64,000 bases of DNA from Escherichia coli. GTDB taxonomy: Bacteria; Pseudomonadota; Gammaproteobacteria; Enterobacterales; Enterobacteriaceae. Where the stretch lies: the NCBI RefSeq assembly GCF_051903065.1, contig NZ_CP178438.1; one strand, given 5' to 3'. Positions 12,284 through 41,892 of the stretch are shown one piece after another (position 1 is the stretch's first letter; each line of letters begins with the position of its first letter). Made by a program: the position numbers and the translations under genes. Under the pieces are notes generated by a model. That model was not told the origin of the DNA. It did no database searches and worked only from the letters and a program-made list of their open reading frames with translations.

Positions 12284-13321
12284 ATGTTTTCCGCATTGCG
12301 CCACCGTACCGCTGCCTTGGCGCTCGGCGTATGCTTTATTCTCCCCGTACACGCCTCGTCACCTAAACCTGGCGATTTTGCTAATACTCAGGCACGACAT
12401 ATTGCTACTTTCTTTCCGGGACGCATGACCGGAACTCCTGCAGAAATGTTATCTGCCGATTATATTCGCCAACAGTTTCAGCAAATGGGTTATCGCAGTG
12501 ATATTCGGACATTTAATAGTCGGTATATTTATACCGCCCGCGATAATCGTAAGAGCTGGCATAACGTGACGGGAAGTACGGTGATTGCCGCTCATGAAGG
12601 CAAAGCCCCGCAGCAGATCATCATTATGGCGCATCTGGATACTTACGCCCCGCTGAGCGATGCTGACGCCGATGCCAATCTCGGCGGGCTGACGTTACAA
12701 GGAATGGATGATAACGCCGCAGGTTTAGGTGTCATGCTGGAATTGGCAGAACGCCTGAAAAATACGCCTACCGAGTATGGTATTCGATTTGTGGCGACCA
12801 GCGGCGAAGAGGAAGGGAAATTAGGCGCTGAGAATTTACTCAAGCGGATGAGTGACACCGAAAAGAAAAATACGCTGCTGGTGATTAATCTCGATAACTT
12901 AATTGTTGGCGATAAATTGTATTTCAACAGCGGTGTAAAAACCCCTGAAGCAGTAAGGAAATTAACGCGCGACAGGGCGCTGGCAATTGCGCGTAGTCAT
13001 GGAATTGCCGCAACGACCAATCCGGGTTTGAATAAAAATTATCCGAAAGGCACTGGGTGTTGTAATGACGCAGAAATATTCGACAAAGCGGGCATTGCTG
13101 TACTTTCGGTGGAAGCGACTAACTGGAATCTTGGGAATAAGGATGGTTATCAGCAACGCGCAAAAACACCTGCCTTCCCGGCGGGAAATAGCTGGCATGA
13201 CGTAAGACTGGATAATCAACAACATATTGATAAGGCACTTCCTGGAAGAATAGAACGTCGCTGCCGTGATGTTATGCGGATAATGCTACCGTTGGTGAAG
13301 GAGCTGGCGAAGGCGTCTTGA
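12284..13321 (+). CDS. iap: Alkaline phosphatase isozyme conversion aminopeptidase
   Basis: 345-aa ORF with signal peptide and M28 peptidase-like sequence; sits at the classic iap position next to the CRISPR array. Confidence 0.92.
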   Translation: MFSALRHRTAALALGVCFILPVHASSPKPGDFANTQARHIATFFPGRMTGTPAEMLSADYIRQQFQQMGYRSDIRTFNSRYIYTARDNRKSWHNVTGSTVIAAHEGKAPQQIIIMAHLDTYAPLSDADADANLGGLTLQGMDDNAAGLGVMLELAERLKNTPTEYGIRFVATSGEEEGKLGAENLLKRMSDTEKKNTLLVINLDNLIVGDKLYFNSGVKTPEAVRKLTRDRALAIARSHGIAATTNPGLNKNYPKGTGCCNDAEIFDKAGIAVLSVEATNWNLGNKDGYQQRAKTPAFPAGNSWHDVRLDNQQHIDKALPGRIERRCRDVMRIMLPLVKELAKAS

Positions 13322-13402: not shown

Positions 13403-13858
13403 CGGTTTATCCCCGCTGGCGCGGGGAACACGTGTGGCACTCTGCGTCTGGTATTAAATCATTCGGTTTATCCCCGCTGGCGCGGGGAACACCCGCCACG
13501 CCGTGCGCATCAACAGATATACGCAGGTTTATCCCCGCTGGCGCGGGGAACACAAACCGAAACACACGATCAATCCGAATATGAGCGGTTTATCCCCGCT
13601 GGCGCGGGGAACACCGAAAAGGCACCGTGCCGGTGACGTTCAATTCCGGTTTATCCCCGCTGGCGCGGGGAACACCGTTTTCACTCACTGGCAATCTCCG
13701 AGCAGAGCGGTTTATCCCCGCTGGCGCGGGGAACACGTGCGAATACCGTGTAAAAAATTAGTGTTATTCGGTTTATCCCCGCTGGCGCGGGGAACACTCA
13801 CGGTAGCGCCACTGCGCGTCGGTGACGGGCGGTTTATCCCCGCTGGCGCGGGGAACAC
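13403..13858 (-). CRISPR. CRISPR array 1 (type I-E): 8 repeats, 7 spacers of 32 nt
   Basis: 29-bp repeat CGGTTTATCCCCGCTGGCGCGGGGAACAC at 13403, 13464, 13525, 13586, 13647, 13708, 13769, 13830 (61-bp period). Third repeat starts with A. AT-rich leader on the high-coordinate side, so transcription is on the minus strand. Confidence 0.97.
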
Positions 13859-13954
13859 ACTAAGCATACATATCTGTTTTTAAACAAATTTATTCCACAT
13901 CAACAATCTACCAACTAAATTCAAACATTTCCTTATTTTTAAAGAACACATAAC
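13859..13954 (-). promoter_or_regulatory. CRISPR array 1 leader (AT-rich; promoter and integration signals)
   Basis: AT-rich tract between the last repeat and cas2; contains CAATCTACCAAC, also found at similar distance in the leader of array 2. Confidence 0.7.
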
Positions 13955-15164
<1,210 letters not shown>

Positions 15165-15168
<4 letters not shown>

Positions 15169-40976: not shown

Positions 40977-41554
40977 TGGTTTATCCCCGCTGGCGCGGGG
41001 AACTCGTACTGACGGATAAAAATAATACCTTTTGCGGCGGTTTATCCCCGCTGGCGCGGGGAACTCGTCAACGTTTTTCATGTGGGCATGAGTTGGGGCG
41101 GTTTATCCCCGCTGGCGCGGGGAACTCTATTCGGCCTCGTGCTGGTCGTGACAAAATACCGGTTTATCCCCGCTAGCGCGGGGAACTCTGGCGATATTGC
41201 CTACCGCAACAAAGAAAATACGGTTTATCCCCGCTAGCGCGGGGAACTCATCCACGAATCCAGTGCAAATGAGTTTGTTGGCGGTTTATCCCCGCTAGCG
41301 CGGGGAACTCATTGTGACTACCACCGATAACCCCGCAACCACCGGTTTATCCCCGCTAGCGCGGGGAACTCCTGCATTCGCCTGCGGTTATCAGATCGCT
41401 AAACGGTTTATCCCCGCTAGCGCGGGGAACTCGCTGCCATTACTTCCCGCCAGCGTTGCTCTGGCGGTTTATCCCCGCTAGCGCGGGGAACTCGCAGAGA
41501 ATCGTTCGATTGCCCCTACATCTTCCGGTTTATCCCCGCTGGCGCGGGGAACTC
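40977..41554 (-). CRISPR. CRISPR array 2 (type I-E): 10 repeats, 9 spacers of 32 nt
   Basis: 29-bp repeat CGGTTTATCCCCGCTGGCGCGGGGAACTC at 40977, 41038, 41099, 41160, 41221, 41282, 41343, 41404, 41465, 41526. Repeats 4-9 have CTAGCGC instead of CTGGCGC; repeat 1 starts with T. Leader on the high-coordinate side. Confidence 0.97.
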
Positions 41555-41700
41555 TCTAAACATAACCTATTATTAATTAATGATTTTTTAAGCCAGTCAC
41601 AATCTACCAACTTTACAGTATCACACAAACAACACATCCATTATGTTAAAGAGCGCTTAATCCATTGATTAAAAAGGTAAATATTTAAAATAACTCTATA
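41555..41700 (-). promoter_or_regulatory. CRISPR array 2 leader (AT-rich)
   Basis: AT-rich; contains CAATCTACCAAC about 45-58 nt from the first repeat as in leader 1, and a second similar copy AAAATCTACCAAAC further out. Confidence 0.65.
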
Positions 41701-41892
41701 CAAACTAAAATCTACCAAACTTTACCGCAATAATTTTCACTCCAACGAAAAATTAACGCCACAGAATTTGTAGAGAATGATAATGATTAGTCCAGGATGG
41801 GCAAAATGGAGGTTTTTCAGAGGCGACAAAGAATATAAATGAGTAGAAGTCTTTACAGGTTCCACCCATTTATAACGCTTATAAAAGTTTAA

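Follow-up and report, generated by a model that had tools for sequence, protein, structure and literature searches.

The window, by which we mean the whole 64-kb stretch of DNA that was analysed, holds a complete CRISPR-Cas locus of type I-E from Escherichia coli, with two arrays, both transcribed on the minus strand. By increasing coordinate, array 1 is followed by the minus-strand cas operon in the order cas2e, cas1e, cas6e, cas5e, cas7e, cse2, cse1 and cas3. The features that frame the two leaders are as follows.

12284-13321, plus strand: iap, which precedes array 1
13403-13858, minus strand: CRISPR array 1, 8 regular 29-nt repeats with a 61-nt period
13830-13858, minus strand: leader-proximal (right-hand) repeat of array 1
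13859-13954, minus strand: leader 1, non-coding, from the first repeat to the cas2 stop codon
13955-13957, minus strand: cas2 stop codon
13955-14248, minus strand: cas2e
14245-15168, minus strand: cas1e
40977-41554, minus strand: CRISPR array 2, 10 repeats, on the queE side
41526-41554, minus strand: leader-proximal (right-hand) repeat of array 2

Array orientation follows from adjacency to cas2 and from the homologous leaders of K-12 and BL21; the leader of array 2 is the queE-side leader found in both of those strains. When 5426 complete E. coli genomes were searched with the two leaders as queries, matches with at least 80% query coverage turned up in 2705/5426 for leader 1 and in 4552/5426 for leader 2. 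The window has a non-K-12 E. coli variant of the cas operon, whose cas2 leader region shares 80% identity with the K-12-type leader. The closest solved relatives of its Cas1 are the E. coli K-12 Cas1 chains in PDB entries including 5VVJ and 5WFE; the alignment covers 304 residues and shows few substitutions.

The repeats differ both between and within the arrays. At the leader-side end, the first repeat reads GTGTTCCCC in array 1 (13830-13858) versus GAGTTCCCC in array 2 (41526-41554), and in reference strains the first repeat starts with GAG in K-12 CRISPR-1 and with GTG in the BL21 queE-side array. Within array 2, six consecutive internal repeats (41160-41500) carry CGCTAGCG, while the leader-proximal repeat (41526-41554) and the three leader-distal repeats (40977-41134) carry CGCTGGCG. 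This arrangement is odd if each new repeat is a copy of the first, a hint that recombination took place or that the first repeat mutated and then reverted.

Our analysis centred on a short sequence shared by the two leaders. The 12-mer CAATCTACCAAC, which reads GTTGGTAGATTG on the transcribed strand, occurs with 0 mismatches at just two places in the 64 kb, 13904-13915 and 41600-41611, against a chance expectation of ~0.008 exact occurrences (64 kb, both strands). The leader-proximal repeats end at 13858 and 41554, and the gap between motif and first repeat is exactly 45 nt in leader 1 and in leader 2, which places the motif at -46 to -57 (negative positions are counted upstream, starting where leader and repeat join). 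It lies within a 14-nt block, AGTTGGTAGATTGT (-58 to -45), that is 100% identical between the leaders, compared with 21/45 identical positions (47%) in the rest of the first 60 nt. The initial annotation, which had marked out 13859-13954, exactly the non-coding leader between first repeat and cas2 stop codon, had reported a motif common to both leaders in otherwise different surroundings, and both statements are borne out. It had also described a similar distance of 45-58 nt; the idea of a fixed distance stands, but the range is the motif's own span, and the distance itself is identical in the two leaders (45 nt) rather than variable. The position, sequence, invariant spacing and cross-species conservation (below) of this element are direct observations. 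Its parts and the neighbouring proximal site for IHF are placed as follows.

13904-13915, minus strand: motif GTTGGTAGATTG in leader 1, leader positions -57 to -46 (corresponding to CBS2, see below)
13908-13912, minus strand: GGTAG core in leader 1, -54 to -50, containing the integrase anchoring site (-53 to -50)
41600-41611, minus strand: motif GTTGGTAGATTG in leader 2, leader positions -57 to -46
41604-41608, minus strand: GGTAG core in leader 2
13867-13893, minus strand: proximal IHF-site region of leader 1, -9 to -35, position from the literature
13867-13879, minus strand: proximal IHF core AAACAGATATGTA in leader 1, -21 to -9
41563-41589, minus strand: proximal IHF-site region of leader 2, -9 to -35, position from the literature
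41563-41575, minus strand: proximal IHF core TAATAATAGGTTA in leader 2, -21 to -9, matching the consensus at 7/9 positions

This position is that of an element already defined by mutagenesis. Yoganand et al. 2017 scanned the E. coli leader upstream of its IHF site in 12-bp blocks, and the block at -46 to -57, named CBS2, was the sole one whose mutation abolished acquisition in vivo; the same mutation also abolished the Cas1-2/IHF supershift and the in vitro integration product (PMC5224486). The defect was already seen when just the central 4 bp (-50 to -53) were changed, and these were named the integrase anchoring site (IAS), with the core given as GTGG, the sequence of the K-12 CRISPR-1 leader that was mutagenised (PMC5224486). 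Two further sources state that, once IHF bends the leader, elements lying some 50 bp upstream, at -50 to -55, come to touch Cas1 within the I-E integration complex, and the same element is termed the "upstream motif" or "upstream binding site" of that complex (PMC10011333; bioRxiv 10.1101/2023.05.26.542337).

The window 12-mer coincides with CBS2 base for base in position (-46 to -57), and the critical core at -50 to -53 (or -55) falls within it in both leaders. A structural study by Wright et al. 2017 reportedly lies behind the contact of the I-E upstream motif with Cas1. The setting is also the expected one: the motif sits in an I-E leader upstream of the leader-proximal repeat, with 29-nt repeats at a 61-nt period and a full I-E cas set adjacent. 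The core reads GTAG here, and across species the consensus is T-T/C-G-G-T-R-G-A. The K-12 CRISPR-1 leader resembles the window leaders in being an E. coli type I-E leader with the motif at -46 to -57, the core at -50 to -55 and, separating motif from repeat, an IHF site (-9 to -35); its sequence, GTTGGTGGGTTG with core GTGG, differs from the GTTGGTAGATTG with core GTAG that is present in the two window leaders. The A/G change falls on the degenerate position of the cross-species GGTRG, and in BL21 the 12-mer of the queE-side leader is the same as here, GTTGGTAGATTG. An IHF site between motif and repeat is likewise present, though its consensus match is just 6-7/9 at -21 to -9 in the window leaders. 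We consider it highly probable that the shared motif is the known type I-E upstream leader motif (CBS2/IAS) that docks Cas1-Cas2. On this reading the partner of the motif is Cas1-Cas2, and IHF acts beside it.

The initial annotation had suggested alignment of I-E leaders from many strains as a check, and we carried this out across species. Using Cas2 alignment we fetched 80 cas2e loci from different species (L003-L082), identified the first repeat on the downstream side of cas2 and superimposed the leaders, ungapped, with the leader-repeat junction as common anchor. A candidate leader was obtained for 75 cas2-adjacent loci; in 6 of them the true first repeat had been overlooked, so that the "leader" included a repeat, and their removal left 69. 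The core is kept at the same position throughout this set. Counted together with the window, K-12 and BL21 leaders, 59/73 have GGTRG exactly at -54 to -50, 3 further leaders have it offset by 1 nt, and all others have GGT at that place. Among the 69 leaders from other species, G-53 is invariant (69/69), G-54 and T-52 are each found in 66/69, position -51 is A or G in 66/69 (33 A, 33 G), and G-50 is found in 57/69. The conserved core extends to TTGGTRGAT, while the full 12-mer is mismatch-free in six close relatives only.

A weighted information profile of these leaders peaks at -56 to -50, at -18 to -16 together with T-10, along an A-tract at -35 to -31, and at TTAG (-5 to -2); positions -36 to -44 are almost without information. 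The peaks at -18 to -16 and T-10 correspond to the WATCAA...TTR core of an IHF site, and the best IHF-like core lies at -21 to -9 in 52/69 leaders. One of the fetched loci (L004) has a proximal core identical to that of leader 1, AAACAGATATGTA, scoring 6/9 against the IHF consensus as leader 1 does. The IHF site of I-E leaders has been placed at -9 to -35 (PMC10011333, PMC5224486), and the columns conserved across species (C-18, A-17, T-10, A-9 and the A-tract at -35 to -31) fit an IHF site there. Cas2-adjacent I-E leaders (L003-L082) also fall into two main length classes, with the first repeat 84 or 96 nt after the stop codon.

The obvious candidate put forward in the initial annotation was an IHF-type site, and it had called for a comparison with the IHF consensus. 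Read on its bottom strand, the motif (AATCTACCAACTA) matches the consensus WATCAANNNNTTR at 7/9 specified positions, equal to the accepted proximal site. However, scores of 7/9 are common in these AT-rich leaders, and the conserved positions are not those specified by IHF: in this register the two most conserved bases, G-54 and G-53, land in the NNNN spacer of the consensus, and the consensus A (A5) opposite -51 needs a top-strand T, seen in 3/69 leaders, where 66/69 have A or G. The site of IHF lies instead at -9 to -35, where the profile has C-18, A-17, T-10 and the A-tract, and CBS2 mutants are still bound by IHF, with a marginal effect on binding and none on IHF-induced bending (PMC5224486). 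We rejected an IHF site as the identity of the motif on this conservation register and on the behaviour of the mutants, and regard it as extremely improbable. A role in transcription, as an extended -10 element (TGgTAGATT) or start-site region of the pre-crRNA promoter, was the other option raised. TGGTAGATT does resemble the extended -10 sequence TGnTATAAT, and the K-12 CRISPR-1 transcript is reported to start ~50 nt upstream of the first repeat; against this, for CRISPR-2 the reported start is ~95 nt upstream of the repeat, so that the motif lies within the transcript (PMC10011333), and the CBS2 defect is reproduced in vitro with purified proteins and without transcription (PMC5224486). Sigma-70 and terminator scans of both leaders returned no promoter using the motif hexamer, the nearest hit being a terminator-like palindrome at the end of cas2. 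Position 2 of a -10 element is its most conserved base, yet that position of the hexamer (-51) is A in 33/69 leaders and G in 33/69, and K-12 CRISPR-1 has TGGGTT at the hexamer. A promoter element is thus very unlikely, although the motif may have an additional secondary role in transcription.

Mere common descent of two paralogous leaders could also leave an identical stretch that has no function, and the two leaders are indeed homologous along their length. The identity of the motif nonetheless stands far above that background (100% over the 14-nt block versus 47% for the rest of the first 60 nt), the core is found at the same position in ~70 species with diverged flanks, and its mutation abolishes acquisition (PMC5224486), all of which leaves descent without function a probability close to negligible. 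What remains of the original proposal, a protein-binding site for polarised integration or promoter function, is its first half: an integration site, at the CBS2 position, required in K-12 and with a core conserved in ~70 species, whereas a conserved promoter role is unsupported.

With the motif read as the CBS2/IAS element, the mechanism would be the one described in the literature, with which the geometry here is consistent. IHF would bind the AT-rich site at -9 to -35 and bend the leader sharply, in a U-turn, and the bend would fold the GGTRG core (about -50 to -55) back onto Cas1-Cas2 at the junction and first repeat. This second contact and the leader-repeat junction would together form a docking surface at the leader-proximal repeat alone, for which reason new spacers would enter there (polarised integration). 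By analogy with the K-12 CRISPR-1 leader, on which the published work was done and whose core is GTGG rather than GTAG, the motif in the window would be required for acquisition, act independently of IHF binding and contact Cas1; the Cas1 variant of the window presumably uses it in the same way.

Comparable architectures are known in other systems. In the type I-F leader of Pseudomonas aeruginosa, two IHF sites and two inverted-repeat motifs are folded onto Cas1-2/3 (bioRxiv 10.1101/2023.05.26.542337). As in I-E, IHF-driven folding presents upstream leader motifs to the integrase and motif spacing is critical; unlike I-E, the motifs, the spacings and the integrase (a Cas2/3 fusion) are different, and there are two IHF bends over ~150 bp. 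The E. coli I-E leader is described in the same source as having one IHF site and one motif ~50 bp upstream (bioRxiv 10.1101/2023.05.26.542337). A parallel has also been drawn with the lambda attP intasome (PMC5224486), in which IHF bends and arm-type Int sites likewise let a host bending protein bring a distant site to the core-bound recombinase; the recombinase and its sites are unrelated to those of I-E, so that the likeness is one of mechanism and not of family membership.

Upstream of the known motif, both leaders carry a distal perfect match to the IHF consensus (AATCAATRRGTTA), which in cas2-adjacent leaders spans the cas2 stop codon (ENQ*). The alignment of leader 1 with leader 2 extends beyond the motif into this region, and each leader has a perfect WATCAANNNNTTR there. 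The related second copy further out in leader 2, AAAATCTACCAAAC at 41707-41720, is present as the initial annotation had said, and a second GGTRG also occurs in leader 1: GGTGG in leader 1, within the Pro-Val-Asp codons 80-82 of cas2, and GGTAG in leader 2, both exactly 46 nt upstream of the distal IHF consensus.

13951-13963, minus strand: distal perfect IHF consensus AATCAATAGGTTA of leader 1, -105 to -93, spanning the cas2 stop codon
14005-14009, minus strand: second GGTGG, in cas2 codons 80-82 (P-V-D), 46 nt upstream of the distal IHF consensus
41658-41670, minus strand: distal perfect IHF consensus AATCAATGGATTA of leader 2, -116 to -104, where there is no cas2 gene
41707-41720, minus strand: related second copy AAAATCTACCAAAC in leader 2
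41712-41716, minus strand: GGTAG within that copy, -162 to -158, 46 nt upstream of the distal IHF consensus

The distal IHF consensus scores at least 8/9 in 55/69 leaders, at -93 in 35 and at -105 in 11. The 12-nt difference between the two length classes falls between this consensus and the proximal GGTRG, and the distance from GGTRG to the repeat is constant. The non-coding bases after the stop codon that complete the distal consensus are conserved as well (T+2 97%, T+3 91% and A+4 81% in 58 species). Synonymous constraint within cas2 was assessed in 58 genes with GC3 from 0.20 to 0.76 and is strong at codons 80-82. CCG encodes Pro80 in 52/58 genes, compared with 32% of the gene's other Pro codons, and GTG or GTA (GTR) encodes Val81 in 56/57, compared with 46% at other Val codons; when 27 conserved four-fold sites are ranked by third-position entropy, Pro80 comes lowest and Val81 third from the bottom. 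The bases so constrained read GGTRG, and their A/G degeneracy is that of the proximal motif.

A terminator-like palindrome, CCTGTTGATAATCAATAGG (13954-13972, minus strand), shares bases with the distal IHF consensus where cas2 ends. We considered a conserved RNA or DNA hairpin at the cas2 stop and rejected it: by eye, the left arm varies between species, with no compensating change in the conserved AATCAA arm, and conservation of the hairpin is unlikely.

Leader 2 has the same distal elements in a place without cas2. Its distal part (41612-41740) aligns to the 3′ end of cas2 plus leader 1 with a DNA alignment score of 53 versus 24 +/- 4 for shuffled sequences. A tblastn search of Cas2 against leader 2 gave an insignificant match only, ungapped and colinear, of VDFSLYRVILNIYLFNQ against 18 protein letters, = 7, so that the homology of leader 2 to cas2 is drawn from the DNA alignment. 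On this alignment, distal leader 2 resembles a cas2 3′ end that has decayed except for three preserved islands (GGTRGATTT, the IHF consensus and TCTTTAA), and its second motif copy is the positional homologue of cas2 codons 80-82. In strain FDAARGOS_1276, which has the most divergent E. coli leader 2, the distal motif is GGTGG and its flanks are changed. Scanning metagenomes for leader-repeat junctions gave four orphan leaders from outside E. coli that have no cas2 (L117, L173, L184 and L187). All four have a perfect IHF consensus, at -93, -104 or -105, and 3/4 have GGTR 45-46 nt upstream of it, with CGTAG in the fourth; the chance of at least 3/4 having GGTR there is ~1e-4 when shared ancestry is ignored. 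Orphan leaders of other lineages thus largely keep the pair of GGTRG and distal IHF consensus, which suggests a second module.

One possible arrangement, which we put forward tentatively and regard as doubtful, is that the I-E leader of Enterobacterales and relatives is bipartite, with the known module (GGTRG at -54 plus IHF at -21) joined by a distal module (IHF consensus at the cas2 stop plus GGTRG 46 nt upstream). Because 60 bp of leader suffices for acquisition with overexpressed Cas1-Cas2 (PMC5224486), the distal module is not essential under such expression. According to bioRxiv 10.1101/2023.05.26.542337, multiple IHF sites have been reported for "some I-E leaders". Our literature searches for a second IHF site in I-E leaders and for details of the Pcrispr1 promoter returned nothing usable. 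The leader survey of Santiago-Frangos et al. 2021 probably covers such multiple IHF sites already. The distal module is therefore treated here as a side observation and not as a discovery. If functional, it could fold the leader onto Cas1-Cas2 a second time, in the manner of type I-F, or modulate adaptation under native expression. The I-E leader would then be more like that of I-F, the cas2 reading frame would encode part of the recognition site for adaptation, and the "minimal leader" of 60 bp that is standard in E. coli recording and acquisition work would be incomplete.

The proximal motif is an element already known, and its recovery here is a rediscovery, in which the correct functional element was found from raw sequence alone. 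It explains why new spacers enter I-E arrays at the leader end only, as has been known since 2016-2017. The value of the result is confirmation: the element holds, at an invariant position, in a non-K-12 E. coli cas variant and in ~70 other species.
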